Of a DNA stretch of 64,000 nucleotides, positions 36,413 to 51,118 are shown one piece after another (the stretch's first letter is position 1; each line of letters opens with the position of its first letter). Source of the DNA: Anaerolineales bacterium (GTDB taxonomy: Bacteria; Chloroflexota; Anaerolineae; Anaerolineales; Villigracilaceae); contig JAVEWN010000006.1 in NCBI GenBank assembly GCA_034004515.1, positions 6,615 through 70,614 on the forward strand. Reading direction: 5' to 3'. Below the pieces are notes generated by a model, which did no database searches, was not told where the DNA came from, and was given only the letters and a program-made list of their open reading frames with translations. The translations under genes were made by a program, and so were the position numbers.

Positions 36413-38319
36413 AACTGCGCTTTTTGGGAATCGGAATGTTGTTCACGCTCTGGCTTTCTGCCTGTGGCCCGGGCTTTGGGCCTGCCCCCAGCTTAACCCC
36501 GGCGGAAGAGACGCCCCGTATCTTATCCACCGTTACCCAGGCCGCCGCCATCCTGACACCTTCCCCGCCTCCAACGCAATCGTCCACAGCCTCCCCAATT
36601 CTCCAATCTACCGATTTGCCAACTTCCAATTTACCAATCACCCCATTACCCATTACCCAATTACCAATCGCCACTTGTTTAGCTGACAGCCTTCAATCTT
36701 TCGCCTACCTGCCCAATTCCATCGTCCTGCTTGAAATCCTGCCCCTCGAAGACGGCAGCCTGCTCCTGCGCGGCCTGCTCGACGACAAACCCGGCACCTG
36801 GCTCGCCAAAACCGACCCCGCCGGAATGATTCTCTGGCAAAACGTTTATGGCAGCGGCTCGTGCAGCCTGCGCCCCGGCCCCAACGGCAGTTTCGTGCTC
36901 GAATTTGGAAGAACCAGCCTCGAAATCGCCGGGGATGGTTCGCTGGTTGGGAACGGCTACAGCGTCCCCTGGTTTCAACGCAACGCCGATGACAGCCTGA
37001 CCCTCCTCTCCGGCGGACGGGTGGCCCATCTCAACAGCGCCAAAAACTGGGCTTACAGCATCAAGGATTTCGGCGGCTTCGCGCTTCCGGCCTCCGATGG
37101 CGGCGCATGGTTTGCTTACGCGGGTGTCTATACAGATACGTCGGTTTATTATGCCCCGCAATGCACCGATATCAAGGTCATCAAAATCCTGCCGGGTGGT
37201 GAGGTCATCCAGCGCGTGTACGGCAAACTGGTCGGCGACGAAACCCTCGAATTTCTCTATCCGGCCAACGACGGCGGCGCGCTGCTGGCCGGTTCGCACG
37301 CCTACGAAGAACTCGCCCCCGATTACGACATCTGGCTGATGAAACTAAACGCCAGCGGCGGGCTGTCCTGGCAGACGACGCTCAAGCTGCCGCCCCATCA
37401 TGAAACCCTGACTGGGATTTATTTCCTTAAAACCGGCTATCTGGCCGTCCTGACAACGCCCGTCGAAAACGACAATCCGCTGCTGGTGCGGCTGAAACCC
37501 AACGGCAGCCTGGCCTGGCAGAAAATTCTGACCTCCAGCCGCGGCACGGTCCAAATCAGCGCTGTGGCCGAAACCGCAGATGGCGGCCTGCTGCTGGCCG
37601 GTGAAACCTGGGAAAAGAACAACGTCTACTGGCTGGCCCGGCTCGACTCGCGCGGCAACCTGCTCTGGGAGAAAACCCTCGGCTACTACGGCTTGGCCGA
37701 CGCGCCAGGCACAAGCGTAACCGCCATTCTGCCGCTTGCGGACGGCGAAATCCTGCTCGGCGGCAGCAGCGATTTGGTCGGGAATGCCATTAACGCAGCC
37801 TCGTCCGCCTGGTTGGCGCAGATTCCCGATTCCGGGCAGGTTTTCGGCCTGATCAGCCTGCAACCCGGCAAATTTACGGTCATTTCCAGCCTCGCCAGCC
37901 GCCCGAACAACTTGCCGAACGAGGTCTTGGCCCTAGACAAAATTTTCTGGGACGAGACGGAGGCCGAAGTCACGCCGATCGATCTCCAGCCGGTCTCGGT
38001 CTGCCTGCCCGCCGAAGCCTCCTTCCCCACCCCGGCAGCGCTCCCCAGCCTGACGCCTTCTCTGACCCCCACGCCTTCTTTCACCCGCGATCTGTACCTG
38101 TCCAATCCGCCCATGCAGGGCGACGATGTGCGGATGCTGCAAGAGCGCCTGCTCGAGCTGGGCTACAGCGAAGTCGGCCTGCCGGATGGCATCTTTGGCA
38201 AAATGAGCGAGGCCGCCGTGCGCCGCTTCCAGCAAAACAACGGCCTGGAAGTGGATGGTTACCTCGGCCCCAAAACATGGCGCACGCTCTTCAGCCCCGA
38301 TGCGGCCCGTGGAGGGTAG
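36409..38319 (+). CDS. Lipoprotein with a repeat propeller and a C-terminal peptidoglycan-binding domain
   Basis: ATGA overlap with the previous gene. Lipobox TLWLSAC. Repeats of the type DGG.LLAG...W(L/M)..L...G...W. The C-terminal LQERLLELGYSEVGLPDGIFGKMSEAAVRRFQQNNGLEVDGYLGPKTWRTLF matches the PG_binding_1 pattern. Confidence 0.75.
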   Translation: MKLRFLGIGMLFTLWLSACGPGFGPAPSLTPAEETPRILSTVTQAAAILTPSPPPTQSSTASPILQSTDLPTSNLPITPLPITQLPIATCLADSLQSFAYLPNSIVLLEILPLEDGSLLLRGLLDDKPGTWLAKTDPAGMILWQNVYGSGSCSLRPGPNGSFVLEFGRTSLEIAGDGSLVGNGYSVPWFQRNADDSLTLLSGGRVAHLNSAKNWAYSIKDFGGFALPASDGGAWFAYAGVYTDTSVYYAPQCTDIKVIKILPGGEVIQRVYGKLVGDETLEFLYPANDGGALLAGSHAYEELAPDYDIWLMKLNASGGLSWQTTLKLPPHHETLTGIYFLKTGYLAVLTTPVENDNPLLVRLKPNGSLAWQKILTSSRGTVQISAVAETADGGLLLAGETWEKNNVYWLARLDSRGNLLWEKTLGYYGLADAPGTSVTAILPLADGEILLGGSSDLVGNAINAASSAWLAQIPDSGQVFGLISLQPGKFTVISSLASRPNNLPNEVLALDKIFWDETEAEVTPIDLQPVSVCLPAEASFPTPAALPSLTPSLTPTPSFTRDLYLSNPPMQGDDVRMLQERLLELGYSEVGLPDGIFGKMSEAAVRRFQQNNGLEVDGYLGPKTWRTLFSPDAARGG

Positions 38320-38424
38320 CGAACTTTAAATTGGTCGCTTTTCAGGATCAGTTCATTCACAATTCGCGCTTCGAAAACGCGCTTTTCATCAACAACAATC
38401 CGCCTGTGGCCTGGTGCGGGCGGT

Positions 38425-38928
38425 TTAGGCGGGCGGATTTTGCGCGAGGAAAGACTCAATGCAGGCCGCAAGACCGTCGACATCGTCCAGGTCAAACACG
38501 GGGACGCTTGTCTTGAGGGCGATATCGCTTGCATAGGCGATTAAATTCTCAGGAGCGCTGATTGGCTCAGAACTCAACCCGCTCCGTATAATTTCAATCG
38601 AAGGTTTGCCGGCATTCTTGTAACCTTCGACAAGGATTAAATCAACATCGGCAATCTCGCGGACGATTTCATCGAGGGTCAGCTCTTTTTTGAGAAGGCG
38701 ATAAGAGGCCAGCTTATCGGGCGCGGCAATGACGACATGTTCGCTGCCCGCCCGGGCATGCCGCCAGCTATCTTTTTGGGGCTGGTCAATTTCAAAGCCG
38801 GCGTGTGAGTGGTGTTTCACCGTCGCAATGTGATAGCCCCTGCGTTTTAGCTGCGGGATGAGCTTTTCGAGTAGGGTGGTCTTTCCAGCGCCAGACCTGG
38901 CAATGATGGTAATGACAGGAATCGACAT
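38425..38928 (-). CDS. mobB: Molybdopterin-guanine dinucleotide biosynthesis adapter protein MobB
   Basis: Start moved to the ATG at 38928 (GAGGAG upstream). Walker A ARSGAGKTTL, then VKHHSHAGFEID and LILVEGYK as in MobB. The longer ORF would overlap the upstream gene. Confidence 0.85.
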   Translation of the reverse strand: MSIPVITIIARSGAGKTTLLEKLIPQLKRRGYHIATVKHHSHAGFEIDQPQKDSWRHARAGSEHVVIAAPDKLASYRLLKKELTLDEIVREIADVDLILVEGYKNAGKPSIEIIRSGLSSEPISAPENLIAYASDIALKTSVPVFDLDDVDGLAACIESFLAQNPPA

Positions 38929-38936
38929 GAGTCTCC

Positions 38937-39671
38937 TCAGGGCAAGAACAGGATCAAGATCAAGAGAGAGGCCTCCCCAAGAATGAGCCATCCGTCCAGT
39001 GTGCCAATTTTGAGGGGCGTCGTGCGGCTTAGCTCGGGCCGAAAGGCGCGCGCTTCTGCCGCAAGCACAATCTGATCGGCGTGGCGCAGCGAATTGGTCA
39101 GAATCGTCAGCAACAACAATTGGATTGCGCGCCACCAATTGGCGCGCAATCCGCCGCGCATGCGCAGGCTGTGCCAGGCATTCGTGCTGGATTGGCGCAG
39201 GTCGGGCAGCAGGTTGGCCGCCACCCCGATTGAAAAACCCAACCCCTGCAATCCGCCGCGTTCGATCAAACCGGCCAGCTCGGTAATATTGACCGAACTC
39301 GAAAGGCCGTCCGCCGCCAGCAAAATGGCAACGGCCCGCAGGGTCATCTGGGCGCCATTCATCAAGGCAACCGAAGAAACGGGCAAGCCCAAAATCATCC
39401 AATCAGGGCCGCTTTCCGGGACGCCAAAAAACACGTTGACCAGAAACAAGCCGCCCAGGATGAGCAGCCAGCGCGGGCGGGCCAGGCGCTGCAAGGCAAA
39501 CGGATAAGCCGCCACCAGGACCACGAGCGTGAGCAGGGCCGGCACAAGCCCGCGTGAGAGCGGCGGCAGGAGAACCATGCCGATTGCCCACAGAAAAATG
39601 CTCAAATGAGCCAGGCTCCCAAAGCGGGGCCTGGCTTTTTGGGGTTCGCGCATGGATTGGGCCGCTTTCAT
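38937..39671 (-). CDS. ecfT: ECF transporter transmembrane (T) component, CbiQ/EcfT family
   Basis: Multi-pass membrane protein with the C-terminal Arg-containing coupling region (AWHSLRMRG...ADQIVLAAEARAF) typical of CbiQ/EcfT. Confidence 0.75.
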   Translation of the reverse strand: MKAAQSMREPQKARPRFGSLAHLSIFLWAIGMVLLPPLSRGLVPALLTLVVLVAAYPFALQRLARPRWLLILGGLFLVNVFFGVPESGPDWMILGLPVSSVALMNGAQMTLRAVAILLAADGLSSSVNITELAGLIERGGLQGLGFSIGVAANLLPDLRQSSTNAWHSLRMRGGLRANWWRAIQLLLLTILTNSLRHADQIVLAAEARAFRPELSRTTPLKIGTLDGWLILGEASLLILILFLP

Positions 39672-39673
39672 CC

Positions 39674-40114
39674 TTATGGGATTGCGATAATCTCTGTCAG
39701 CTGGCGCGGATTCAGCTTGCCGCCTTCTTTTGGCAGCACCATCCGAAAGGGTGCGTCTTCGGCGCTGAGCGGGCCATCGGCCTGGGCATAGGCCACAATC
39801 GTATCGGGGAGGTTATAAAGCGCGGCATCATAGTTGGCCGAAAAGCCGTCTGCGGCGACTGCTTTGACTGCGGAGAGCGCAGCGGGATCAATGCCGGCAT
39901 CCGCCAGCAAAACTGTCAACGGTACGCCGAGGTAGGTGATACCGTTGATCGTGGCTTGTGCATCCCCGAGCGCCTTGAGATCGGCGTTGGTGTAGGTTTT
40001 TTCAAGGGTGCCGTTCGACACTTTCAAAGCGTCGGCAGCGGGGGTCTGGGCGGCAGGCGCACAAGCTGCCAGGGCCACCATCAAAGCCAAACTCAAAAGT
40101 AAAAAGCGTTTCAT
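39674..40114 (-). CDS. Small lipoprotein with a molybdopterin-oxidoreductase-like (sulfite oxidase fold) domain
   Basis: Lipobox LMVALAAC. GVPLTVLLADAGI...AVAADGFSANY...GPLSAEDAPFRMVLPKEGGKLNPRQLTEIIAI resembles the Oxidored_molyb signature (GVPL..LL, DGY, G-P-x-R-L-V-V-P...K-W-L..I). Confidence 0.55.
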   Translation of the reverse strand: MKRFLLLSLALMVALAACAPAAQTPAADALKVSNGTLEKTYTNADLKALGDAQATINGITYLGVPLTVLLADAGIDPAALSAVKAVAADGFSANYDAALYNLPDTIVAYAQADGPLSAEDAPFRMVLPKEGGKLNPRQLTEIIAIP

Positions 40115-40136
40115 TAGTAGAGTCTCCTATCAGAAA

Positions 40137-40745
40137 TTAGATTTCAAGCGGTTCGGGCAGGGTTGCGCCCAGTCTTATTTTTAAAACTTGTCCAAGTTTC
40201 CAGCCCAGCCAACCGCCCAGGCCGCCGACTGCCAGGTGCAAAATGACCAGGGCCAGCACAATCCACAAGGCGGCCTGAGCCGGCAGCCGAAACAGGCGGC
40301 TGCCCGTATCCAGCAAATCGAGCCAGACGACAAACAGGTTGCGGCCAAACAAAAGCGCGCCGGTCACGAAAGGCTGGACAACCGTCCATAAGGATGCGCC
40401 GGCGCTGGCAAAGATAAAAGCCAGCATGGACGGCTTCGGGAAGATATCCAGAATCAGTTCCGCAACCAGGGCTTCGGTCAAGATGCCGACCATGGGCCCA
40501 ATCAGGATATTGCCAATGCTGAATAATTTCAGCGTCATCGCGATCAGGCCGATGAAAATAGTGGAGCCGCGCCGCGGCACAAACAGACGGGCAATCGAGG
40601 CCACCATTACGCCAATCACCGAAAGCATCATGCCGCTCAAGGGCAAATGGATGGCGTGCAGCACCGAACCCAGGCTGATCTCTACCAGGCCCCACAACGC
40701 CCCAAATACAGCCAGGGTTACGAGTTCGCGGGTTGAAAATTTCAT
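40137..40745 (-). CDS. ECF transporter substrate-capture (S) component, specificity unknown
   Basis: Start set to the ATG at 40745 (MKFSTRELVTLAVFGALWGLVEI...). About 200 aa with six hydrophobic helices, positioned between the ECF ATPase and T genes. Confidence 0.6.
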   Translation of the reverse strand: MKFSTRELVTLAVFGALWGLVEISLGSVLHAIHLPLSGMMLSVIGVMVASIARLFVPRRGSTIFIGLIAMTLKLFSIGNILIGPMVGILTEALVAELILDIFPKPSMLAFIFASAGASLWTVVQPFVTGALLFGRNLFVVWLDLLDTGSRLFRLPAQAALWIVLALVILHLAVGGLGGWLGWKLGQVLKIRLGATLPEPLEI

Positions 40746-40765
40746 AATTGTCCTTTCCACTCAAA

Positions 40766-42274
40766 TTAATTTGCAGGATACCCGTCCGGCAGCGGGCTGG
40801 TTTTATCAGGATCAGGGCCGGAAGCGCGGCCCATCGAAACGGGATCAATTTTCCCGTCGAGCGTGATGCGGCCTTTCTCCATCAAAATAACACGGCGCGC
40901 GTAGCGATGCACCAATTTATAGTCATGGGTAATCAGCAAAATGGCAGCGCCCTGGGCGTTGAGCTGCATCAGGCAATCCATCAGTTGTTGCAGGTGACGC
41001 CAATCCTGCCCGAGGGTAGGCTCATCGAGAATGACCAGGGCGGGGCGCAGGGCAATGCAGGAGGCCAGGGCGGTGCGCTGCTGCTGCCCAATCGACAGCG
41101 AAAATGGGCGGCGGGCGCGCAGCAGGAGCAGGTCTGCGCTGGCAAGCGTCTGTTCGTGGATGTGCTCGTCAAAGCTGCGATAATTGCGCGGGCCGAACGA
41201 AACTTCTTCCTCGACCGAATCGGTAAAGAGCTGGTCGGCAGGGTTTTGAAATAGCAGGGCAATATCCAGGCCGGGGCGCGGGCGGGATGTGCCGCGCACG
41301 AGCGTTTTCCCGCTCAGGGGTTTGAGCAGTCCCGCCGCGGCCAGGGCCAGGGTCGATTTGCCCGTGCCATTGTTGCCAACCAGGGCGACAAACTCGCCGG
41401 GGAAAATTTTCAGATCGATGTCGTGGATGATGGCCTGACCGTTGTAGCCGGCGGTAATATTTCGGAGGTCAAGCAAGGGCGGCTGACCGGCGGGAGGCTG
41501 CCCGTTCGGGACCAGCAAGCGCGACCAGTCCGCGAGCGACTCCATCGTCGGACGGCGCAAACCAAACTTGCGGCGAATTTCGTGATCGCCGAGCACCTCT
41601 TCAAAATTGCCTTGAGCCACCTGCTGGCCTTCGTCCAGCACCAGCACTTTGTCTGCAATCCGGCGCACCTCGGCCAGGCGATGTTCGATCAGCACGATTG
41701 TCAGGCCAAATTGACGGCGCAGGTTTTCGAGGGCCGCGATGACACTTTGGGTACCCGGCACATCCAGCGAGGCGGTCGGTTCATCCAGCACCAGCACCTG
41801 GGGACGCATGGCCAGGGCGGCCGCGATAGCGATCCGCTGAATCTGTCCGCCAGAGAGGTTGGCGGGCTTTTTATCGCGCAATTCGGTCAGCCCAAGCGCC
41901 TCGAGCGCCCAATTGACGCGGGCCGCAACTTCATCTTCTGGAAAGCCGAGGTTGCGCGGGCCAAAAGCAATTTCATCGTCCACGCGCAAGTGGAAAAGCT
42001 GGGCGCGCGGATTTTGGAAAACGACGCCGACCTTTTGCGAGATTTCTGCGAGAGGCGTGTGGAGGACATCCAGGCTGGCCACCGTCACCTGGCCCTCGAC
42101 CTGGGCCGGAATCGAATGGGGGATAATTCCCGTCAGGACACGCGCCAGGGTCGACTTGCCGCAGCCAGAAACGCCGGTCACAATCAGGCATTCAGCGGCC
42201 TTCAGGCTGAGCGAAACCTGCTGCAAAACCCGGCTGGGCCCGTACGAGACGGTTAAGTCAGAAACCTGGATCAT
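40766..42274 (-). CDS. Fused tandem ABC ATPase (EcfA1-EcfA2-like)
   Basis: Start moved to the ATG at 42274 (MIQVSDLTVSYG). Two Walker A motifs (GVSGCGKST, GNNGTGKST), two signatures (LSGGQIQR, LSIGQQQR) and two Walker B motifs (VLVLDEPT, LVILDEPT). Confidence 0.9.
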   Translation of the reverse strand: MIQVSDLTVSYGPSRVLQQVSLSLKAAECLIVTGVSGCGKSTLARVLTGIIPHSIPAQVEGQVTVASLDVLHTPLAEISQKVGVVFQNPRAQLFHLRVDDEIAFGPRNLGFPEDEVAARVNWALEALGLTELRDKKPANLSGGQIQRIAIAAALAMRPQVLVLDEPTASLDVPGTQSVIAALENLRRQFGLTIVLIEHRLAEVRRIADKVLVLDEGQQVAQGNFEEVLGDHEIRRKFGLRRPTMESLADWSRLLVPNGQPPAGQPPLLDLRNITAGYNGQAIIHDIDLKIFPGEFVALVGNNGTGKSTLALAAAGLLKPLSGKTLVRGTSRPRPGLDIALLFQNPADQLFTDSVEEEVSFGPRNYRSFDEHIHEQTLASADLLLLRARRPFSLSIGQQQRTALASCIALRPALVILDEPTLGQDWRHLQQLMDCLMQLNAQGAAILLITHDYKLVHRYARRVILMEKGRITLDGKIDPVSMGRASGPDPDKTSPLPDGYPAN

Positions 42275-42413
42275 GCCGCGGCCTGTGGGCCGCTGCGCCT
42301 GCCCATTCGAAGGCCCAAGACCTGGTGCGGGCACAGATGCGGATGAATTGCCGCGCTTTTTTGCAAGAAATCTTGTAAAGTTGTCACCTTTGCCTGACTT
42401 TCAAGTAAAGCGA

Positions 42414-42446
42414 TTAAAAAACTCGCCCGGCGGGAACCAGGCGAGT
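42414..42446 (-). terminator. Intrinsic terminator inside the 5' leader of the ECF operon (putative expression platform)
   Basis: Minus strand: ACTCGCCTGG-TTCCCG-CCGGGCGAGT (10-bp stem with one G-U pair) followed by TTTTTTAAT. Lies about 140 nt upstream of the start codon. Confidence 0.6.
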
Positions 42447-42459
42447 TTTGAGGCCGTTG

Positions 42460-42605
42460 CAGGGTCTCAGCTCCTTTCCAAGTCGATCCCATTTGCGGTG
42501 AGACTTCGGGAGGCCGCCCTGTTTCCGGGGAAACCCTTGCCCTGCGCGCAGGGCTGTCCAGTCTGCCATGACTTTCGTTTTAGACAGAAAAGATCGGAGT
42601 GATTT
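42460..42605 (-). ncRNA. Structured leader RNA; candidate Moco/Tuco riboswitch aptamer
   Basis: The minus-strand leader contains, in order, ACUCCGAUC, the hairpins GCCCUG-CGCG-CAGGGC and GUUUCC-GG-GGAAAC, GGCCUCCCGAAG, and UGGAAAGGAGC enclosed by a GUCUCA/UGAGAC helix. These strings match my recollection of the Moco motif core. Not verified with a covariance model. Confidence 0.45.
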
Positions 42606-42725
42606 TGGGGACAGGTTCTTTTGAACTCGTCCCAATTTGATGATACTGAACTTTGCGTTATTTCACATCATGATTTTGGATGGTTTTTCTTATTACCCGA
42701 AAGAGTGAAGCCGGAGCCGGGGGAT

Positions 42726-42941
42726 TCATTTGGTGAGTGATTTCTTCACCTTTTCCAATTCGTCGAGCATGTCCAGCTCTGTTTTTAACTCGTCAGAAAA
42801 GGAGGCGAGATAGGCTTTCACGTTGCGCACAAATTTACCGATCTCACGGGCAGAGCGGGCCAGCCGTTCAGGGCCAAGCACGATCGCTGCCAGCAAGAGA
42901 ATAACAAGCAGTTCATTGCTGCCAATCCCAAAAATATCCAT
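42726..42941 (-). CDS. Twin-arginine translocase TatA/TatB-family protein (second copy)
   Basis: MDIFGIGSNELLVILLLAAIVLGPERLARSAREIGKFVRNVK: an N-terminal TM helix, then G-P, then an amphipathic helix. Confidence 0.85.
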   Translation of the reverse strand: MDIFGIGSNELLVILLLAAIVLGPERLARSAREIGKFVRNVKAYLASFSDELKTELDMLDELEKVKKSLTK

Positions 42942-42942
42942 A

Positions 42943-43746
42943 TCAACCTCGCCTGACCAACGCTGCCAGGAGGATGCTGACCAGGTACAGGCCCATCAGC
43001 GGCAGCATCACCAATCCCATGTTGACCGGGTCAACCGTGGGTGTAACCGCCGCAGCGACGATCGCCATGATCACCAGGGCATAGCGCCAGCCTTCCAGCA
43101 GCTGTTTTGCGGAGACGAATTTCAGCTTGGCCAGGAACATAATCACCAGCGGCATTTCAAAACAGAGGCCGATCCAGAACATTAAGCGTGTGATGAAATC
43201 GAAATAGTTTTCAGGGCGAACCTGGGTGGTAATGCCCAGAAAATTCGTCAGGAAAGGGACTGCCGTCGGCAGCATTACAAACCAGGTGAAAGCCACTCCG
43301 CCCGCAAAGAGGATCGTCGCAAAAGGCACGATGAGCAGTAGCCAGCGGCGTTCGCTCGTTTTCAGGCCGGGCAGGATGAAGGCCATCAACTGATAAATGA
43401 TGAAGGGCATCCCCAGGATGAACCCGCCCAGCAGGGAAACCTTCATAAAGGTGGCGATGTTCTCGGTAATCTCGATTGAGATTAGTTTCTCCGTGCCGCC
43501 GATCGGCGCGGCCAGGTAATCGATAATCTGCTGCGCGAAGATAAAGCTGAAAGCGGTCGCGGCCACCAGCGCGGCAAACGCCTTGAACAGCCTGCGACGC
43601 AGTTCGTCCAGGTGCTGAAGCAAGGGGGCCGAAGTTTCAAGCTGGGTGCTGGCTTTTTGATGGGCGCGTCCAAATGCGCCCAAGTAGCCAGCCCAGTTCC
43701 GTTTGGCCTTCTTCTCCGCTAACGTTTCCTTGTCACGCGCAGACAT
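42943..43746 (-). CDS. tatC: Twin-arginine translocase subunit TatC
   Basis: LLQHLDELRRRL start region, six TM helices, conserved TatC layout. Confidence 0.9.
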   Translation of the reverse strand: MSARDKETLAEKKAKRNWAGYLGAFGRAHQKASTQLETSAPLLQHLDELRRRLFKAFAALVAATAFSFIFAQQIIDYLAAPIGGTEKLISIEITENIATFMKVSLLGGFILGMPFIIYQLMAFILPGLKTSERRWLLLIVPFATILFAGGVAFTWFVMLPTAVPFLTNFLGITTQVRPENYFDFITRLMFWIGLCFEMPLVIMFLAKLKFVSAKQLLEGWRYALVIMAIVAAAVTPTVDPVNMGLVMLPLMGLYLVSILLAALVRRG

Positions 43747-43936: not shown

Positions 43937-45259
43937 TTATATATCCGATAAACGAAAATCTTTAGGGTAGGTCAGGTCAAGTTTGAGTTCCCGCAGGTAG
44001 GTTTCCCCGCCACGCTCCTCGAGGACGTTAGTCGATATACCCACCTCGATATCGAGTTTTTTCAACATCCTGATCTTGCTGACATGAAAAACAAGGCTGC
44101 CGGGCTTGTCACCGGCCCTGTAATCGCGATAGCCATTCTTTTGGAAAGCCGCCTTTGCGATTTCGGCGTCTTTGCCAAAGACCTTGGCCGCCTTCAAGAA
44201 GTAGTCGCGGCGTGAAAAGTATAGCACATTCATTTTAACGGGCTTCAGATCCTGCTGATAAATCTGGCCGGTGTGTTTGTTTTCGAGCGAGCAGTAATGG
44301 ACGCCCAGTTGCAGGCCTTGCTCCAAAGCAAACTCGATCAGGTCGAGGCAGGCCTGCTCACTGCCGGCCACAGGCAGCCCGCCGGCATACCAGTAGTTGT
44401 ACAGCACCCGGAAAGGCCGGGCTTTGATCAGATAGCCGCGCGCGCGGTATTCCTGGGCGTTGTGGAGCGGGAAACAAAATTCGAGCAAGTTGATTCCGAA
44501 GACGCCCAAACGCTCCAGTTCAAGCAAAATTTCCTGCATGGCCTCCCGCGAATCGGGTAAAACCGGCATCTCGACCATGACGTTCGGGATATACTCACGC
44601 GCCAGAGCGATCTGGTCGAAGGTGTGCTGGCGCGCGGTGGGCGTATCTTCAACCCGAATGCTGAAACGGATTTCATCCATGCCGGCCTCTTTGAAGGCCT
44701 GCAAGGTCTCACGCTCCAGCTGATCGCCGCAGGTGTAAAGACGCGTATAGGCTTTGGGAAAGTTCTGGCGGGCATGTTGGAAAAAGTTGATCGTTTCTTC
44801 TTTGTAAAGCAAGGGTTCACCGCCGGTCAGAGCCAAATGCTGGGCAGGCCCGCCGCTCTGTTGGAGGGCGTCCAGTTCGGCGGCTACGTCGCGTTTATGC
44901 TCGCGGTGATGCTGATAGTCTTCCTGGTTCGGGTTGAAACAGAAAAAACAATCGCGGTGACATTTAAGCGAGATAAAGAATGTTCTGCTGCCAATGCCGC
45001 GCTGGCAAGCCAGGCAACCGCCCGAGATGCGCTGGGTATAGACGCTTTTCGCATCATTGCGCACGATTGCGCCGCGTTTACCCAGATCAGACAGGCGCTG
45101 GGCCACCTGCTGGCTGTCATCCAGCGCTTCAACGTCGAGGCCCATCTGGCGCACCTGATCCATGAAATCCTGATAGATTTGGACGTACTGCCCGGCCTGT
45201 GACCTCAGTTCAGGGTTGCGGATGGAGGCCAGTGTACTCTCGTTGATCTCAATAATCAT
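43937..45259 (-). CDS. Radical SAM protein, unknown substrate
   Basis: CX3CX2C cluster CHRDCFFC at about residue 100 and a GGEPLL SAM-binding motif. Overlaps the upstream gene by 11 nt. Confidence 0.85.
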   Translation of the reverse strand: MIIEINESTLASIRNPELRSQAGQYVQIYQDFMDQVRQMGLDVEALDDSQQVAQRLSDLGKRGAIVRNDAKSVYTQRISGGCLACQRGIGSRTFFISLKCHRDCFFCFNPNQEDYQHHREHKRDVAAELDALQQSGGPAQHLALTGGEPLLYKEETINFFQHARQNFPKAYTRLYTCGDQLERETLQAFKEAGMDEIRFSIRVEDTPTARQHTFDQIALAREYIPNVMVEMPVLPDSREAMQEILLELERLGVFGINLLEFCFPLHNAQEYRARGYLIKARPFRVLYNYWYAGGLPVAGSEQACLDLIEFALEQGLQLGVHYCSLENKHTGQIYQQDLKPVKMNVLYFSRRDYFLKAAKVFGKDAEIAKAAFQKNGYRDYRAGDKPGSLVFHVSKIRMLKKLDIEVGISTNVLEERGGETYLRELKLDLTYPKDFRLSDI

Positions 45260-46451
45260 CGGGCTGCTCCACTGCTACAGGTTTGTTCCGTTTAAATCCG
45301 GGCGGCAGGACAGAACCAAACCGGTTTTCACGGCGGTATTGGCACAGCTCGCACAGCCGCGTGGCCCCGCGTTTTGCCGTCAGCGCGGCGCACTGCTCAC
45401 ATTTGATCAACTCACCCGCCTGGAGGACAGCGATGGCGTCCCCAAAAATATCCGCAAACTGGGGCGAACGGTCGAGGCGGATGGCATCCGGCGCGCAAAC
45501 GTGGACGCACAATCCGCAAGCCACGCAGTCCGGCGCGGCGAATTTTAGGGCGAAGGTGGTTTGGTCTTCATCTTTTTCAAACTGCAAAGCGCCGGTTGGG
45601 CAGGCCCGCGCGCAGGCGGCGCAGGCGGTGCAGGCTGCACTGACTTGGAGCGAGCCGAATCCAAACTCTCCCAGGTTTAAGTTTTCAGCCGCGCTGGGGG
45701 CAGGCAAATGGCCGAGTGCGTTGACGGTGCGTTTGTGGTTGCGCCCGGGGCGCGGGCCAGCCTGAGTCTGTCCATATTGCATGGCGCGCGCCATCGCAAC
45801 CTGACCCTGGCGGGCCAGCATCCGAAACAGGTCGCGCCGCGAGAGCGGCGGGTTGCTGGCGTTCCAGAGCGGGCGCTCGATTGCCTGGTCGAGGCCGGAG
45901 ACGCAGCGCAACGAGTCGCCGCGACCCCAGGCTGCAAGCAGCTCTTTGGCGCGCGCAACCTGGGCTTCGACTTCGGGCTGCAAAGCGGCCCATTTGCAAG
46001 TGGAACAGGCATCAGTCCGGGCCACGACCTGTTCGAGGCCGAGCGCGGCCAGGGCCAGGTAAGTCCCGCTCCCCAGCCCGGCGAGACAGCCTCGAACCTG
46101 GATGCCCACGCTCGTTTGGGCGATGCCGGCCTCGCAAGCAGGATTCAACTCACAAAGCAGTTCGAGGGTCTGATCTTCCAGGTGGGTGACAGCGTTCAGA
46201 AGCGGCGTGACCGCATCGTCCGCGCTGTACGCGCCGACCGGGCAGACCGTCAGGCAGGCCAAACAGCCCTCGCATTTTTTCGGGTCGAGGCTTGGCGGTT
46301 GGCCGGGCGTAATCGCGCCGACCGGGCAGATATTAAAACATGCCGCGCACTCTGAATGCTGGTCACGCGTATGCAGGCAGCGTTCAGCATCCAAAATGAC
46401 TTGCGAACGGTCAAGTGAGGCAAACCGTTCGGCAGCATCGAGCAGACTCAT
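45249..46451 (-). CDS. Multi-cluster 4Fe-4S ferredoxin-domain protein (about 400 aa)
   Basis: Start moved to the ATG at 46451 (ATGA overlap with torD-like). Motifs CAACFNICPVG, CEGCLACLTVCPVG, CTACAACARACPTG and CVACGLCVHVCAPD, plus extra Cys pairs. Confidence 0.8.
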   Translation of the reverse strand: MSLLDAAERFASLDRSQVILDAERCLHTRDQHSECAACFNICPVGAITPGQPPSLDPKKCEGCLACLTVCPVGAYSADDAVTPLLNAVTHLEDQTLELLCELNPACEAGIAQTSVGIQVRGCLAGLGSGTYLALAALGLEQVVARTDACSTCKWAALQPEVEAQVARAKELLAAWGRGDSLRCVSGLDQAIERPLWNASNPPLSRRDLFRMLARQGQVAMARAMQYGQTQAGPRPGRNHKRTVNALGHLPAPSAAENLNLGEFGFGSLQVSAACTACAACARACPTGALQFEKDEDQTTFALKFAAPDCVACGLCVHVCAPDAIRLDRSPQFADIFGDAIAVLQAGELIKCEQCAALTAKRGATRLCELCQYRRENRFGSVLPPGFKRNKPVAVEQPDDY

Positions 46452-47152
46452 AGCGTGGCTACCTTCGGCAGGGGCACTTGCAGCATCTGGGCCGCGGCCA
46501 ACAGCGCGCCATGCGCCAGATGGGCCATTCCGCGATAGAAATCGGTCGAGGCGTGCTGCTTGGCCAGGGTCGCCCAAGCCGGCCCCCAGCGCAGGAGATG
46601 CTCCAAGAGAAAATCACGCTGAGCTTGCAGGACATCGTCCAGCGATTGCTGATCTGCCTGTTCGATTGCCCGCAAGCCGCGCGAGGCAAGGTGAGACACA
46701 AAAAGCAGTTCCAAACCGATGTGATCGTCTGGTTCCTTGTTAATTTGTTCGATCTGCATCCCAAAACGCGCATACCAGTTGCGCACCTGAATGGTTTGCT
46801 CCTGGAAGACGAGCCGCTCGTTGTTGAAGTAAACCGATTCCCAGGGAACCGCGGGCATGGAACCCAAGCCAATAAACAAGCGGGTATAGTCCATTCTCAG
46901 ATCATTAAATTTCTGGTCAGAAATGCCGCCGGCCTGTTCGTCCGCCCACTTTTGGAGAATTTCCAAGCCGCGCACGATTTCGATCTGGGCTGCGCCAAAC
47001 GGCGATTCGCTAAAGACCTCGTCGCTGACCAATTGATTCAGCCATTCACGGTCTGGCTCCTGGTAGAGCGCTCTGCCGAGCAAGCTGAATAGTAATACTT
47101 CTCCGACAAGTGCTGCCGTTAAGTCGTCTGTTAAGATCATTTTATTGTTCAT
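46448..47152 (-). CDS. TorD/DmsD-family molybdoenzyme maturation chaperone
   Basis: DYTRLFIG...PWESVY...DHIGLELLF pattern typical of the TorD/DmsD family. Confidence 0.8.
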   Translation of the reverse strand: MNNKMILTDDLTAALVGEVLLFSLLGRALYQEPDREWLNQLVSDEVFSESPFGAAQIEIVRGLEILQKWADEQAGGISDQKFNDLRMDYTRLFIGLGSMPAVPWESVYFNNERLVFQEQTIQVRNWYARFGMQIEQINKEPDDHIGLELLFVSHLASRGLRAIEQADQQSLDDVLQAQRDFLLEHLLRWGPAWATLAKQHASTDFYRGMAHLAHGALLAAAQMLQVPLPKVATL

Positions 47153-47164: not shown

Positions 47165-50140
47165 TTAATTCTGGCGGATTTTGAAGCGCCGCCAGGCTAA
47201 GTATAGGCCTCTGATTAAGAATGCTGCAATAACAATCAGCACCACTATATACGTAACGAAGGTCACAGCTTGGGCAATGTTAATTCCAATTTGGGCCAGG
47301 CGGTCACGGATTTGGGCCGGGAGGGAGGGTTCCCATTTGGCTGGCAAGAGGGTTTCATCCCCGCGTGGAAGCGACACAACCAGCGTTCCCTCATGAGCGA
47401 CCGGGATGGGGAGATTCTGTTCGGAAAGGAAAACCATTTCTCCGGCTCTGACTGGCACTTCCTGCCCGTCCCGCGTCCGAATGAGGGCTTCTCCCTCGAA
47501 CAAATACAACCAACCGCCCCGCGCCGGGTGATATTCCAAAGCAAAGGAACCGCGCGTTAGCGTGATCTGTTTGCCCGCCACGCGGAAATTGAGTGCTTCG
47601 GCCTTTTGGTTCTGGCCCCAGACCCAGCCGGTTGCCAGGCTGCGAATCCCCAGCGATTCTTCGGAGATCGTCTCAGGCGGTAGGGTGATGTTTCCATCTC
47701 CCCAGGGCAGGAGCCTGGTTTCTGGCTGGCGAACCAGTGCAAAGTCGATCTTCTGGGCCGGCCCGTCCGCCAGGTCCACCACCCGGGCCTGGCTGTAATA
47801 ACCGGGCGCGTTGGCAATCAGGGTGGCTTTTAGCGGGTCGAGGCCAAAGATGCGATACTCCCCGTTAAGCGGATTAACGGGGGAGGCCGGGTCTGAGGCG
47901 GCTGTCGCCCAGCCAAAGGGCAGCGAGACTCCATCCTGGCCGGACAAGCGCCCGGCAGCCCAGGCGTTGCCAGTCTTCTGGATCTCGATTGTGATCTCAG
48001 CTTGAGCATCTTTGGTCAGATCAACCTGGGAGGCGGCCGCCTGGTAGCCGCGTCTGTTCGCGGATGGATCCAGAAACAGCTGGTATTTACCGCTCGGCAG
48101 GTCGGCGAAGGTGAAATTTCCATTTTCCGCCAGCGTGGTGTGGGAGGTTCCATCCGGCAGATGGACAGCCCAGATCTCGAACGGTTCGAGCCGGTCGGGG
48201 CTGGTCAACTGTCCGCTGATCTGGCCCTGACTGGTGCGGACAAAGACTGTCACCGGATCGTGGCCGGCTGCGCCGGGCGCAAGCTCTACCACAACCGATT
48301 CGAGGCTCTCGTACAAATATCCATTCAGGGAAGTGGGCGGAACGCTGATCGTGTATTGGGTCGCGGCCTGGGAAAGGGCTTCGAGGGACAGCCGGGCAAT
48401 GCCGTTCGCGTCGCTGGTTTCGCCTGCAAATTGGTCGCGCCATTCATACAGGATGGCCGCCGCGCGCACAGAAAGCCCGGAAATGGGCTCGCCATTCTTG
48501 CTATCAAGCACGCGCACGTCCATTTCCAAATCCCTGCCCGTATCGACAGTAAACCAGCGTTCGTCCGAAGCCTGCCCGCCATTCGGAGAAGCAGCCGTGA
48601 TGAGAAGTTGAACCTGTCCATCTGGCAGGGAAGCCTGGCTTTTGAATTCCTCGTGACAGGAGGCGCAATCCGGGTCAGCAGCTTTGGCTCCGGCCACGAT
48701 CATGGCCCCCTCCGGGTTGATGGCAAGGCTGAAGGTAAATGCACCATCCGACTCTGGTTGGGTGAATAATTCGGCAGTCCGTTGCCCGCCCGACCAGATT
48801 TCCATTCTGACGGTAACTTCGTTTTGCGGGCCAGTATAAAATACGCGCCCAACCACAAATGCCGGAGAAAAATTGCGTCCGCTGCTATACAACGTTTCCC
48901 CATTGGTGGGGTAGTTGATCTGAACCGCGAGATTTTCAGACGAGATCGGAAGCCCGACCGGGTCGGCGGGTGGAAGATAGGTAATCGGAGATACCGCCTT
49001 GCTTGAGCGCGGGAAGAAGGGGCACCAGTTCATGCTGACGCCATTGACATGGCACGATTCGCAGCTCATTTGAATGACGCGCGGCGGGGCGCTCATCCCG
49101 ATTGGATGGTGACAGGCCCGACAGTCGCTGGGAGTATCTGCCTGCGGAAAATCTGCGGCGCTCGGGTTACTTAAATCCCACAGCCGGAGCGTGTTGTCGC
49201 TCGAACCCGAAGCGACGGTTTTTCCATCCGGGGCGAAGGCGACGCTGTAAACAAAATCCGTGTGTCCCACCAGGGTGCGCAGCAGGCGGCCATCAGCCGT
49301 GTCCCATAACTTGACGGTGGCATCGACAGACCCGCTCGCCAGGCTTTTGCCGTCGGGTGAGAAGGATAAACTCAGGACGCTGGCGCGATGGTCAGCAAGG
49401 AAATATTTTATCTGGCCCGAAGCAACATCCCATAAAATGACTTTGGTATCGAACGCGCCCGAAGCCAGCGTTTTGCCATCGGGCGAGAAGGCCAGCCCCC
49501 GCACCCAATCCTTGTGCCCCTTAAGCGTTTTGACCAAACTCCCGCTTGAAGCATTCAACAACTGGACGGTGGTATCCTGCAAGCCCACCGCGAGCAGCTC
49601 GTCATCCGGCGAGAACACCAAGACTCGCGCCCCAGGCGAACCGGCGATGGACAAGGCCTCGCTCCCGCTTTCAACGTTCCAAATCCGGATGATGTCATCA
49701 TCCGCAGCGGTCGCAAGCAAAGCGCCATCCGAAGAGAAGGCAATACTGCGCACCCAGCCGTTATGGGCGGCAATCGTTCGGATTTCCTTTTCGTCAGAAA
49801 GACGCCAAAAGCGGAGTGTGCCATCGAACAATCCCGCAGCGACGGTCTGTCCATCCGGGGAAAAAGCCACGCTGCGCGCCCAGACTGCGGTGCTAAAAAA
49901 ATGCGCCTGTGAGAATTGCTGTGTATCAAAAATGGAAACGCCCGCAGATCTGGCAACTGCCAGCCATTTGCCATCCGGGGAATAAGCGACCGAATTGGCG
50001 ATGTCGCGTCCGGCGCTGGAAAGAGTAATAACACGGCTGCCGCCATCCGGAGACAACTGGAAAGCGGTGGAAGGAGTCGGAAAGCAGAATGAAATCAGAA
50101 TAATAACTGAAAGGGTCAGTAAATAGCGTTTGAGAGCCAT
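47165..50140 (-). CDS. Fusion protein: signal/anchor, 7 WD40 repeats, three CxxCH heme motifs, Ig-like domains, a FecR-like domain, C-terminal TM helix
   Basis: Start moved to the ATG at 50140 (MALKRYLLTLSVIILISF). WD40 repeats are of the form GH.D.V.S.AFSPDGK.LASGS.D.T..LWD. CRACH is encoded at 49109-49123, CESCH at 49049-49063 and CASCH at 48653-48667. The FecR-like stretch is GKQITLTRGSFALEY...GEALIRTRDGQEVPVRAGEMVFL. The C-terminal helix is VTFVTYIVVLIVIAAFLI. Confidence 0.8.
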   Translation of the reverse strand: MALKRYLLTLSVIILISFCFPTPSTAFQLSPDGGSRVITLSSAGRDIANSVAYSPDGKWLAVARSAGVSIFDTQQFSQAHFFSTAVWARSVAFSPDGQTVAAGLFDGTLRFWRLSDEKEIRTIAAHNGWVRSIAFSSDGALLATAADDDIIRIWNVESGSEALSIAGSPGARVLVFSPDDELLAVGLQDTTVQLLNASSGSLVKTLKGHKDWVRGLAFSPDGKTLASGAFDTKVILWDVASGQIKYFLADHRASVLSLSFSPDGKSLASGSVDATVKLWDTADGRLLRTLVGHTDFVYSVAFAPDGKTVASGSSDNTLRLWDLSNPSAADFPQADTPSDCRACHHPIGMSAPPRVIQMSCESCHVNGVSMNWCPFFPRSSKAVSPITYLPPADPVGLPISSENLAVQINYPTNGETLYSSGRNFSPAFVVGRVFYTGPQNEVTVRMEIWSGGQRTAELFTQPESDGAFTFSLAINPEGAMIVAGAKAADPDCASCHEEFKSQASLPDGQVQLLITAASPNGGQASDERWFTVDTGRDLEMDVRVLDSKNGEPISGLSVRAAAILYEWRDQFAGETSDANGIARLSLEALSQAATQYTISVPPTSLNGYLYESLESVVVELAPGAAGHDPVTVFVRTSQGQISGQLTSPDRLEPFEIWAVHLPDGTSHTTLAENGNFTFADLPSGKYQLFLDPSANRRGYQAAASQVDLTKDAQAEITIEIQKTGNAWAAGRLSGQDGVSLPFGWATAASDPASPVNPLNGEYRIFGLDPLKATLIANAPGYYSQARVVDLADGPAQKIDFALVRQPETRLLPWGDGNITLPPETISEESLGIRSLATGWVWGQNQKAEALNFRVAGKQITLTRGSFALEYHPARGGWLYLFEGEALIRTRDGQEVPVRAGEMVFLSEQNLPIPVAHEGTLVVSLPRGDETLLPAKWEPSLPAQIRDRLAQIGINIAQAVTFVTYIVVLIVIAAFLIRGLYLAWRRFKIRQN

Positions 50141-51106: not shown

Positions 51107-51118
51107 ATCACTTCTCCT

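Follow-up and report, generated by a model that had tools for sequence, protein, structure and literature searches.

A minus-strand operon in an Anaerolineales genome is best explained as a dedicated group I ECF-type ABC importer of the molybdenum-cofactor (Moco) regulon. The operon looks like an undescribed supply route for molybdenum enzymes, serving either cofactor or pterin salvage or molybdenum/tungsten uptake, and we found no prior description in the literature of a Moco-riboswitch ECF importer with a SUOX-fold lipoprotein. The window, which is the whole stretch of 64,000 nt that was analysed, comes from Anaerolineales bacterium GCA_034004515.1 (contig JAVEWN010000006.1, positions 6,615-70,614, forward strand). 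The first-pass annotation of this DNA had read the operon as a Mo/W or Moco-salvage importer and left the choice among these substrates open; our results support that reading. All the minus-strand genes that it named are present where it had placed them, as judged by profile matches and translations, and the Tat system and DMSO-reductase-family enzyme that it saw upstream are there as well, in the form of TatA/B, TatC and a Mo-bisPGD oxidoreductase with a Tat signal. Gene content, riboswitch identity, fold assignments and the conservation of the module and of its Moco gene neighbourhood were established. In transcriptional order, the operon consists of the following elements, with gaps of 20, 22, 2 and 8 nt between the ATPase, S, lipoprotein, T and MobB genes:

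42454..42611, minus strand: Moco riboswitch aptamer with P3 stem (RF01055)
42413..42448, minus strand: intrinsic terminator, 13-bp GC-rich hairpin and U tract (folding, sequence reading)
42271..42387, minus strand: 38-codon ORF, remnant of an FmdE-family gene (N-terminal match to full-length FmdE)
40766..42274, minus strand: fused EcfA-EcfA' double ABC ATPase, 502 aa (two ABC_tran domains)
40137..40745, minus strand: S component, 202 aa, all-helical membrane protein, distantly YkoE-like (AF2 model, Foldseek)
39674..40114, minus strand: Sec-type lipoprotein, 146 aa, truncated Cys-free SUOX (Moco-binding) fold (PF00174, AF2, Foldseek)
38937..39671, minus strand: T component of the CbiQ/EcfT family, 244 aa (PF02361 CbiQ, 42.9 bits)
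38425..38928, minus strand: MobB, 167 aa, last gene of the operon (TIGR00176, 142 bits; PF03205, 144 bits)

Upstream of it lie, also by profile matches:

42726..42941, minus strand: TatA/B, which together with TatC lies immediately upstream of the riboswitch
42943..43746, minus strand: TatC
43937..47152, minus strand: radical-SAM protein, polyferredoxin and TorD/DmsD-type chaperone
50210..54153, minus strand: DmsABC-like block for a Tat-exported Mo-bisPGD oxidoreductase
51745..54153, minus strand: its catalytic subunit with TAT signal (PF00384, PF01568, PF04879)
51119..51733, minus strand: its DmsB-like subunit (Fer4_11)
50210..51106, minus strand: its DmsC-like anchor (DmsC)

What had been described as a structured leader is the Moco riboswitch, an identity that the first reading missed. 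The RF01055 match spans the full model (1-135) and scores 54.6 bits (gathering score 36; E 2.6e-10), with the P3 hairpin GCCCUGCGcGCAGGGC matched. The terminator that follows is the expression platform of this riboswitch; its hairpin, at -26.6 kcal/mol (z -3.75), is more stable than any of 200 shuffled versions. A homologous riboswitch was detected 5' of the ATPase gene at 60 of 67 genome loci and 26 of 30 metagenome loci. Of 10 sites that nhmmer had detected in nine loci and that were checked with Rfam, 8 reached the RF01055 gathering score, with confirmation at this score in L020, L026, L033, L053, L060 and L068. P3-containing variants of this class track Moco and not Tuco (Regulski et al. 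2008, PMC2408646), and the class has been shown to repress upon Moco binding (PMC2408646).

The core subunits are those of an ECF transporter. The ATPase scores above cutoff with both TIGR04520 (372.9 bits) and TIGR04521 (373.8 bits), and the T component carries two coupling-helix X-R-X motifs, LRMRGG and EARAF, as read from its translation. The S component resisted clean assignment to any known ECF-S family: the protein of the window has no Pfam or NCBIfam match and no PDB match by sequence, and it attains 11.5 bits with PF09819, the gathering score of which (25.2) is reached by a few of its homologues. Its AF2 model (pLDDT 85) retrieved ECF S components as top Foldseek matches (5edl, 5kc4_E and 4huq_S), the nearest solved fold being YkoE (5edl; E 0.02, 19% identity). 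Relatives of this protein begin at MKFSTRE, and W18, E22, K73, E91 and E96 are invariant throughout the family. The operon thereby resembles YkoEDC, the group I thiamine/HMP system of Bacillus subtilis, which also combines a fused double ATPase with a dedicated S and T component in one riboswitch-controlled operon. However, the similarity of S is remote, the riboswitch is a TPP element there and a Moco element here, the present operon includes a lipoprotein of the SUOX fold as well as the Moco genes mobB, fmdE and an NTPase gene, and YkoF is absent.

Could this then be an ordinary vitamin or metal ECF transporter, either for thiamine/HMP like YkoEDC or for cobalt/nickel as in CbiQ-type systems, with Mo genes as chance neighbours? 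The JGI name of some homologues of S is 'ABC-type thiamin/hydroxymethylpyrimidine transport system permease', the Pfam family matched by the T component is 'Cobalt transport protein', and the PF09819 threshold is passed by a few of the S homologues. We nevertheless hold this to be highly improbable: the Moco element is the sole riboswitch in the window, where neither a TPP nor a cobalamin element was found, and it precedes the operon in about 90% of loci; CbiM/NikM and CbiN are absent; the S protein of the window stays well below the PF09819 gathering score; and the lipoprotein has a SUOX fold, while Moco genes lie inside or adjacent to the operon.

The module as an importer of the Moco regulon is supported by its conservation. 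It was seen in about 130 sampled loci, mostly from Anaerolineae, in which the order EcfAA-S-Lipo-T recurs; these loci are independent, and the arrangement is far beyond chance. Of 71 species-level genome loci, 65 have the lipoprotein gene between S and T. The reciprocal scan, in metagenomes, showed S and T on either side of it at all 63 loci that left room for both (63/63), and the family was seen only in this position. Some close relatives (L056, L062) dispense with the lipoprotein. In L074, L076 and L080, from phyla expected to be diderm, it is absent and a TonB-dependent receptor stands beside S and T. Linkage to Moco genes is also tight among homologous operons, as a survey of their neighbourhoods showed for the riboswitch, mobB, mobA, moeA, moaA and fmdE: mobB lies directly 3' of the T gene at 16 of 65 genome loci, MobB, FmdE, MoeA, MobA or MoaA is encoded within 5 kb downstream at 31 of 65, and MoaA, MoeA and MobA adjoin the operon in several genomes. 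On the other side, Tat genes occur within 2.5 kb upstream at 30 of 67 genome loci, and the radical-SAM/polyferredoxin/chaperone block is kept as a unit upstream of them in about 20 or more loci. The DmsABC-like oxidoreductase of the window is likely a client of the cofactor supply.

We propose that the lipoprotein is an extracytoplasmic capture protein. The first-pass annotation had taken it for a truncated molybdopterin-binding domain of the sulfite-oxidase/YedY type, and its quoted peptides, among them AADGFSANY, were found in the translation; the DGFxxNY motif is invariant in the ECF-linked family. Indeed, the protein scores above the Pfam threshold for PF00174 (30.0 bits, gathering score 24; profile positions 56-159 of 169), and its AF2 model is a confident truncated SUOX fold (pLDDT 86.7). 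In the PDB, the model comes closest to the pterin-binding PruR proteins (7kom, Foldseek E 4e-7; TM 0.68/0.74), including the neopterin complex 7rkb, and to SUOX Moco domains, with SorA, YedY and chicken SO also retrieved. PruR (Agrobacterium, Vibrio and Klebsiella; 7kou, 7kom, 7kp2, 7rkb) is, like the lipoprotein, a small secreted protein that consists almost wholly of a degenerate SUOX fold and lacks the Mo-ligating cysteine; PruR binds pterins at the equivalent of the Moco site (PMC11194511). The resemblance is structural only: no sequence-level match to PruR was detected, and the whole lipoprotein family is devoid of tryptophan, so that the PW motif and the pterin-stacking tryptophan of PruR are missing. 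Moreover, the lipoprotein is lipid-anchored and partnered with an ECF transporter, whereas the partner of PruR is a DcpA-type c-di-GMP enzyme. The two probably represent independent reductions of the SUOX fold.

YedY and SorA are periplasmic SUOX enzymes exported by Tat. The lipoprotein bears a Sec lipobox (LAAC) and not a Tat signal, and would thus reach the outside without cofactor. This counts for a rival explanation in which the ECF complex sends cytoplasmic Moco or MPT outward to load the Sec-exported apo-lipoprotein, which would be an extracytoplasmic Moco holder (enzyme, carrier or sensor). ECF-type exporters that supply extracytosolic proteins with a cofactor do exist, and their genes colocalise with client genes (PMC9973259). 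In Listeria, the ECF-like S and T subunits of EetB/FmnA are genetically linked to an extracytosolic cofactor-binding protein, just as S and T enclose the lipoprotein gene at essentially every locus, and Moco biosynthesis genes are adjacent. We consider export very unlikely, however. The mature lipoprotein has no cysteine that could serve as a Mo ligand, and its Moco domain is missing the N-terminal third, which makes catalysis unlikely. EetB/FmnA exports FAD with borrowed ATPases; here, the riboswitch is followed by a complete ECF set of the operon's own and, together with the TonB-dependent receptors, which are importers and accompany S and T without the lipoprotein in the three relatives expected to be diderm, this points to import. 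Furthermore, a riboswitch class that represses on Moco binding (PMC2408646) fits acquisition and not the export of a surplus.

As to what is imported, we lean towards a pterin of the molybdopterin type, for example Moco, MPT or cPMP, to which we give close to an even chance. In L014, L020 and L026, a canonical ModA/ModB transporter with its own second Moco riboswitch lies 3 kb from the ECF operon, which points to a pterin over the free oxyanion. The TonB-dependent receptors and the YkoE-like fold of S point the same way, as do W18, E22, E91 and E96 of S, which are invariant across phyla and would be unfavourable for MoO4(2-). YkoE is the S component for a heterocyclic vitamin, and carboxylates are classic recognition groups for 2-amino-pteridine or guanine rings. 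The PruR and SUOX matches of the lipoprotein and the P3 stem of the riboswitch (the Moco-tracking variant in PMC2408646) also count for a pterin, and riboswitches for other cofactors govern ECF importers that bring in the very cofactor sensed, or precursors of it (PMC3766115). Against it count the missing PruR tryptophans in a likeness that is structural only, the dispensability of the lipoprotein in L056 and L062, and the adjoining MoaA, MoeA and MobA genes, which indicate that these organisms are not obligate Moco auxotrophs. In addition, free Moco and MPT are chemically labile, and to our knowledge Moco uptake has never been shown in a prokaryote.

The main rival is that the metal is imported, as molybdate, tungstate or another Mo/W species, either sulfidic or in an organic complex, with the lipoprotein as capture or hand-off protein; we regard this as a real, if on balance improbable, possibility. 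It may find a parallel in CbiMNQO/NikMNQO (under B12-riboswitch or NikR control), group I ECF systems in a cofactor regulon that import the cofactor's metal and use additional extracytoplasmic or membrane components (CbiN, NikK/NikL). Among ECF systems, it is those of the metal type that are known to have accessory proteins outside the cytoplasm. The B12 riboswitch that governs CbiMNQO is an equally good analogy for metal import. Nevertheless, S is YkoE-like and not CbiM/NikM-like, with three invariant membrane glutamates, CbiN is absent, the accessory protein has a SUOX fold, and the metal substrate would be an anion; we know of no ECF transporter for an anion. The transporters so far reported under Moco riboswitches all carry Mo/W oxyanions, namely modABC and tupABC (PMC2408646; PMC3766115 supplement). 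The canonical importers ModABC/TupABC/WtpABC share regulon and riboswitch class with the operon, but their architecture is wholly different, being that of type I ABC systems that rely on a periplasmic binding protein.

At least five protein clusters (P0313, P0331, P0434, P0435 and P0441) join a related small SUOX-like domain to the N-terminus of a bona fide ModA, the ModA part (TIGR01256) scoring 135 and 133 bits in P0313 and P0331. This ties the domain to the uptake of molybdate and counts against a pterin; in these fusions, however, the domain has lost the DGFxxNY motif. In P0412, the only such fusion followed by ModB, the SUOX-like part is only a faint precomputed PF00174 match. FmdE, too, is common to the ECF operon and the riboswitch-controlled modAB operon of L014, L020 and L026. 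A TehB-like methyltransferase inserted between ATPase and S at 27 of 75 genome loci likewise favours metal import, and with a full Moco biosynthesis pathway nearby, the metal is an obvious need. On the other hand, ModAB in the same loci would make a metal importer redundant unless specific for W or another Mo species, the riboswitch is not of the Tuco type, and TonB-dependent receptors would be unexpected for a 160-Da oxyanion. Judging from the Pfam coverage, the oxyanion-pocket arginines of SUOX enzymes would mostly fall in regions of the fold that the lipoprotein lacks.

With a pterin as substrate, we infer the following mechanism, in which the import direction, the OFF logic, the hand-off to S and, above all, the substrate are our interpretation. 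Transcription would begin 5' of the Moco-sensing riboswitch, with the terminator directly after the aptamer. When Moco is plentiful, the transcript would most likely terminate (an OFF switch, judging by the analogous moaA element of E. coli); when it is scarce, EcfA-A', S, lipoprotein, T and MobB would be produced. The lipoprotein would pass through Sec in the unfolded state and be held by its lipid anchor on the outer side of the membrane, Anaerolineae being taken as monoderm. There, this cysteine-free half of a sulfite-oxidase Moco-binding fold may capture the scarce pterin of the molybdopterin type, be it Moco, MPT, cPMP or a compound closely derived from these, and pass it to S, which would topple within the T/A-A' scaffold on ATP hydrolysis and free the pterin inside. 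Adjacent MoeA, MobA, MobB and FmdE functions could then complete Mo-bisPGD for enzymes that Tat exports, among them the DmsABC-like reductase encoded nearby. In L074, L076 and L080, whose phyla are expected to be diderm, the TonB-dependent outer-membrane receptor appears to assume the capture role.

The operon of the window is an atypical, reduced form, a state that the first-pass annotation overlooked. It lacks the NTPase gene that sits 5' of the ATPase gene in most relatives and the methyltransferase found in about one third of them. Its FmdE remnant ends in a stop codon that overlaps the start of ecfA (ATGA). More than 40 related loci contain a full-length FmdE gene whose N-terminus the remnant matches (HLCPRQVLGVR motif), and in L112 and L114 a full FmdE gene occupies its position.

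The minus strand of the window carries, between positions 38425 and 42611, a riboswitch-preceded operon of five genes, laid out as follows.

Riboswitch, leader and operon
42454..42611, minus strand: Moco riboswitch aptamer (RF01055 over all 135 model positions, 54.6 bits, gathering score 36)
42413..42448, minus strand: intrinsic terminator, a 13-bp GC-rich hairpin with a U tract (-26.6 kcal/mol, z -3.75)
42271..42387, minus strand: 38-codon ORF, a decayed FmdE N-terminus (HLCPHQVLGLR), its stop overlapping the ecfA ATG
40766..42274, minus strand: fused EcfA-A' ATPase, exceeding the cutoffs of both ECF ATPase equivalog models
40137..40745, minus strand: S component, a 202-aa helical membrane protein
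39674..40114, minus strand: lipoprotein of 146 aa (PF00174)
38937..39671, minus strand: T component, CbiQ/EcfT (PF02361)
38425..38928, minus strand: MobB (TIGR00176, PF03205)

From ecfA to mobB the intergenic gaps are 20, 22, 2 and 8 nt. The gene-by-gene account of the first-pass annotation proved accurate, and what it had called a structured leader is real and is now identified as a Moco riboswitch. The P3 hairpin aligns in the RF01055 match, which makes it the Moco-type and not the Tuco-type variant; the P3 stem correlates with Moco versus Tuco recognition among Moco riboswitches (PMC2408646). Folding of the riboswitch leader gave no convincing antiterminator, thus its ON/OFF logic is something that we infer. 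A sigma-70 promoter scan of 38200..42800 returned no promoter, the sigma-70 model being uninformative for Chloroflexota. The terminator scan also flagged a perfect 13-bp inverted repeat inside the T coding region (39122..39152, minus strand: GGATTGCGCGCCA-ATTGG-TGGCGCGCAATCC), which may be a chance occurrence or an internal regulatory or processing hairpin.

The 502-aa ATPase holds two ABC_tran domains within a single protein and scores 372.9 bits on TIGR04520 (cutoff 315) and 373.8 bits on TIGR04521 (cutoff 330). The T component scores 42.9 bits on PF02361 against a gathering score of 25, and two X-R-X coupling motifs, LRMRGG and EARAF, can be read in its translation. MobB reaches 142.4 bits on TIGR00176 (cutoff 76.2) and 144.2 bits on PF03205 (cutoff 26.6). 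By its architecture the system is a group I ECF transporter, with YkoEDC as its nearest known counterpart; the lipoprotein encoded between S and T breaks the ECF "rule" that no extracytoplasmic binding protein is required.

This arrangement is conserved. A scan with an S profile, one genome per species, gave 80 loci, nearly all from Anaerolineae/Chloroflexota MAGs; the few others came from Zixibacteria, Eisenbacteria, Calditrichaceae and the FCB group.

Conservation of the operon among the genome loci
Lipoprotein gene placed between S and T: 65 of 71
Moco-riboswitch element no more than 1.5 kb ahead of the ATPase: 60 of 67
NTPase (PF03266) immediately upstream of the ATPase: 58 of 67
Tat genes just upstream: 30 of 67
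TehB-like methyltransferase present: 27 of 75
T followed directly by mobB: 16 of 65
T followed directly by an fmdE-family gene: 12 of 65
At least one of mobB, mobA, moeA, moaA, fmdE or modA in the 5 kb downstream: 31 of 65

Conversely, running the lipoprotein profile against metagenome contigs added 80 more loci. Wherever a contig left room, S was found immediately upstream of the lipoprotein (63/63) and T immediately downstream (63/63), and all 60 metagenome loci holding both S and T had the lipoprotein between them. Eight of ten nhmmer-detected riboswitch sites tested, from nine loci, reached the RF01055 gathering score in Rfam. The typical order is riboswitch, NTPase, EcfAA, a methyltransferase at some loci, S, lipoprotein and T, followed by MobB, FmdE, MoeA, MobA or MoaA. 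The association of homologous operons with Mo-cofactor genes, which the first-pass annotation had named as one test of its reading, is seen downstream (31/65), and the Moco riboswitch is seen upstream (60/67). The methyltransferase is a TehB-like class I SAM enzyme encoded between the ECF ATPase and S, for example at L006:5779-6423. A LysM-repeat protein encoded after T in two related loci (L077, L078) was considered as an alternative binding protein; hhalign showed no relation to the lipoprotein, and we therefore treat it as an unrelated neighbour.

The window operon has neither the NTPase nor the methyltransferase. Between the riboswitch terminator and ecfA it has only the 38-codon ORF, whose motif, HLCPxQVLG(L/V)R, recurs in more than 40 FmdE genes. 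Two related loci (L112, L114) carry an intact FmdE at this position and most other relatives carry the NTPase, hence the window operon is a reduced version. MobB was also tried as a stand-in for the missing NTPase, but no association was seen across loci (Fisher p = 0.37).

The S component of the window has no Pfam or NCBIfam match of its own: it scores 11.5 bits (E 0.34) on PF09819 (YkoE, COG4721), whose gathering score is 25.2, and it does not match the CbiM family. A few homologues, P0202 and P0240 among them, just reach the PF09819 gathering score, 115 of the 120 homologues listed have no Pfam domain on record, and JGI labels some as thiamine/HMP permeases. An AF2 model of the protein (pLDDT 85) was compared with the PDB using Foldseek, and three of the five top matches were ECF S components: 5edl, 5kc4_E (TmRibU) and 4huq_S. 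YkoE (5edl) was the best match, with probability 1.0 and a TM score of 0.60, the E-values being modest, 0.02 at best. The S profile found no PDB sequence even at E 10, so it is Foldseek that provides the fold assignment. Five residues, W18, E22, K73, E91 and E96, are invariant in the family across phyla. Placement among the known ECF-S families was not clean, and on its modelled fold we assign the protein to the ECF S components, as a new family distant from YkoE.

That the operon is a thiamine or cobalt system under a wrong annotation can in effect be dismissed. YkoE systems are found in a TPP-riboswitch and thiamine context, whereas the window has a Moco riboswitch, present at 60/67 loci, and no TPP riboswitch, and the PF09819 score is only 11.5 bits. 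In CbiMNQO and NikMNQO, a CbiM/NikM-type S component is accompanied by CbiN/NikN (or NikK/L); here, in contrast, S lacks a CbiM match and the operon has no CbiN-like gene.

The first-pass annotation had described the lipoprotein as a truncated sulfite-oxidase-type Moco domain, and both the profile match and the structural model bear this out. It scores 30.0 bits on PF00174 (Oxidored_molyb) against a gathering score of 24, although the match covers only profile positions 56-159 of 169. It has a Sec-type lipoprotein signal with the lipobox LAAC (MKRFLLLSLALMVALAAC) and no twin-arginine motif in this signal. The lipobox residue Cys18 is the only cysteine in the whole family alignment, so that the Mo-ligating cysteine is absent, and there is no tryptophan anywhere in that alignment. 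The soluble domain has 128 residues. An AlphaFold model built with 21 homologues as input was confident (pLDDT 86.7), and its best PDB matches were PruR proteins (7kom, E 4e-7, TM 0.68/0.74; also 7kos, 7kp2 and the neopterin complex 7rkb), followed by the Moco domains of SorA, YedY, SorT and chicken sulfite oxidase (TM 0.67-0.72 to SorA, YedY and the chicken enzyme, normalised to the lipoprotein query). With the SUOX molybdoenzymes (sulfite oxidase, YedY/MsrP, SorA, SoxC) the lipoprotein thus shares PF00174, but it lacks their Mo cysteine and the Tat export, with cofactor already loaded, of their periplasmic members.

The SUOX fold of PruR, a small secreted protein without the Mo cysteine, takes pterins where the Moco site would lie (PMC11194511), and the lipoprotein resembles PruR in being small, secreted, degenerate and without the Mo cysteine. 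The two nevertheless differ in several respects. The PW motif of PruR and its pterin-stacking Trp are absent from the lipoprotein, and the operon partner of PruR is a DcpA-type diguanylate cyclase/phosphodiesterase, whereas the lipoprotein is partnered by ECF S and T at 63/63 loci. Among PDB sequences the lipoprotein profile found SoxC only (E 0.0015), and PruR did not match even at E 10. Since a sequence match is lacking and the conserved tryptophans of PruR are missing, we keep the lipoprotein outside PruR and read it as an independent reduction of the SUOX fold; likeness to PruR is accordingly treated as analogy, not membership. A search of 1.84 billion representative proteins showed the lipoprotein family to be small, with 22 clusters at E<=1e-30 and 284 at E<=1e-3. 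Tandem copies, up to about ten, of the same truncated SUOX-like domain occur in large proteins such as P0282 (1556 aa), P0302 (1234 aa) and P0286 (454 aa), as identified by partial PF00174 matches.

At the level of mechanism the system is best read as an ECF importer that would feed Mo-enzyme maturation and is presumably repressed by Moco. The first-pass annotation had proposed an importer of Mo/W or for Moco salvage; our results support this reading, and we lean towards a molybdopterin-type pterin (Moco, MPT or cPMP) as the substrate, on the strength of a second riboswitch-controlled unit, of TonB receptors, of the invariant S glutamates and of precedent among riboswitch-controlled ECF systems. 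The first three of these speak against a mere further molybdate pump. At three loci a second Moco riboswitch lies about 3 kb downstream of the ECF operon (L014:12623-12756, L020:12613-12770, L026:12988-13144). Placed after mobB-mobA-moaA, it governs a 98-aa ORF, FmdE, canonical ModA (TIGR01256, 151 bits) and ModB, so that two riboswitch-controlled uptake systems stand side by side.

At three other loci only, from phyla expected to be diderm (Eisenbacteria, L074:218-6117; Calditrichaceae, L076:7935-12650; the FCB group, L080:5422-10521), S and T occur without the lipoprotein, and a TonB-dependent receptor is encoded next to them, as is the NTPase. Receptors of this kind as a rule take up nutrients that are scarce or bulky, B12 and thiamine for instance, and not a 160-Da oxyanion. 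In L076 the receptor gene is located between T and the NTPase, clustered with genes for a Mo-bisPGD enzyme, TorD and MobA; a short-chain dehydrogenase directly follows the NTPase, and a second S paralogue is encoded beside a multihaem cytochrome and a Mo-bisPGD enzyme. The NTPase of L080 is part of a 372-aa protein. Judged by the classic ways in which pterins and guanine are recognised, the three membrane-embedded glutamates of S would suit a 2-amino-pteridine-type ring; they would be awkward for MoO4(2-). ECF systems under riboswitch control usually take up the cofactor that is sensed, or precursors of it (PMC3766115).

We tentatively suggest, at a little under an even chance, that this ECF system is the first prokaryotic importer salvaging a molybdopterin-type compound (Moco, MPT or cPMP). 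In the Anaerolineae, taken to be monoderm, the Cys-free SUOX-fold lipoprotein would catch the substrate outside the cell, and in presumably diderm relatives a TonB-dependent receptor would take over this role.

Import of a Mo/W species instead of a pterin is a strong rival, which we consider less likely but quite possible. A small SUOX-like domain related to the lipoprotein is found at the N-terminus of genuine ModA proteins (TIGR01256: P0313, 135 bits; P0331, 133 bits), and P0434, P0435 and P0441 show the same fusion. A sixth ModA fusion (P0412, L161:776-2023) is followed by ModB, its SUOX part being seen only as a faint precomputed PF00174 match. Through these fusions the domain is tied to molybdate uptake in Rosetta-stone fashion; the link is weakened in that the DGFxxNY motif, invariant in ECF-linked lipoproteins, is lost from the ModA-fused domains. 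FmdE is also common to the ECF operon and the modAB operon. Furthermore, MoaA, MoeA and MobA are encoded nearby, thus these organisms can make Moco de novo, and the pairing of a B12 riboswitch with CbiMNQO shows that a cofactor riboswitch can govern an ECF importer of a metal. Together, the ModA fusions, the shared FmdE, the nearby moa/moe/mob genes and the CbiMNQO precedent are the reasons for retaining Mo/W import.

Transport could also run outwards, the ECF complex loading the Sec-exported lipoprotein with Moco after the pattern of EetB/FmnA, the flavin exporter of Listeria (PMC9973259). Export is disfavoured by the lack of a cysteine to ligate Mo, by the TonB receptors and by the class of riboswitch, and we regard it as very improbable.

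To our knowledge, characterised ECF substrates are all B-type vitamins, their precursors, queuosine precursors, or Ni2+/Co2+; we know of no bacterial transporter for Moco or pterin intermediates, and of no ECF system for Mo or W. Either substrate would therefore add a new class to the ECF transporters, and the S family, the type of accessory protein and the substrate class are new whichever hypothesis is right. The Moco regulon gains a further gene set; so far only modABC and tupABC had been listed among its transporters (PMC2408646; supplement of PMC3766115). Should the substrate be a pterin, Moco or cPMP would join B12 and thiamine as a cofactor traded like a vitamin in anoxic communities, with relevance to models of auxotrophy and syntrophy and to the cultivation of Anaerolineae, and the system would offer a protein tool with which cPMP or Moco could be stabilised or delivered. 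Should it be a metal, this would be the first anion-transporting ECF and a clue to Mo/W acquisition in sulfidic habitats. The degenerate SUOX fold would acquire a second non-enzymatic role, besides PruR signalling. In the full-text literature we found no description of a Moco-linked ECF system, database-only annotations (e.g. SEED, RegPrecise) being possible, and nothing relevant on ECF with molybdate, tungstate or molybdopterin, or on FmdE with Mo/W transport. A 2026 review of bacterial pterins states that how pterins cross membranes is unknown (PMC13259868), and a paper on a Caldithrix genome mentions just an MFS molybdate transporter close to a Moco riboswitch.

The Tat system and the DMSO-reductase-family enzyme noted on first inspection are both present upstream on the same strand, the latter as a DmsABC-like Mo-bisPGD oxidoreductase with a Tat signal.

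Genes upstream of the operon
Upstream of the operon, minus strand: TatA/B and TatC
43937..47152, minus strand: radical-SAM protein (440 aa), polyferredoxin (442 aa) and TorD/DmsD chaperone
47165..50209, minus strand: 1014-aa WD40 protein, between dmsC and the TorD chaperone gene, inside the DmsABC-like operon
54388..55044, minus strand: LuxR-type response regulator
55069..56094, minus strand: second DmsC-family membrane protein, directly upstream of the Mo-enzyme operon
56003..58084, minus strand: GAF/HisKA_3 histidine kinase

Some 20 or more related loci keep the radical-SAM/polyferredoxin/TorD block, together with TatC and TatA, upstream of their riboswitch, and the block may be a set of maturation factors for the adjacent Mo enzyme; the radical-SAM protein has a weak MoaA/HxsC-like N-terminus. 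The 1014-aa protein combines a WD40 beta-propeller, CxxCH-type motifs, a carboxypeptidase-regulatory-like domain and a C-terminal membrane helix. Finally, the histidine kinase and response regulator genes flank that of the second DmsC-family protein, and the three (54388..58084) possibly form a sensor module built on a DmsC-like anchor.
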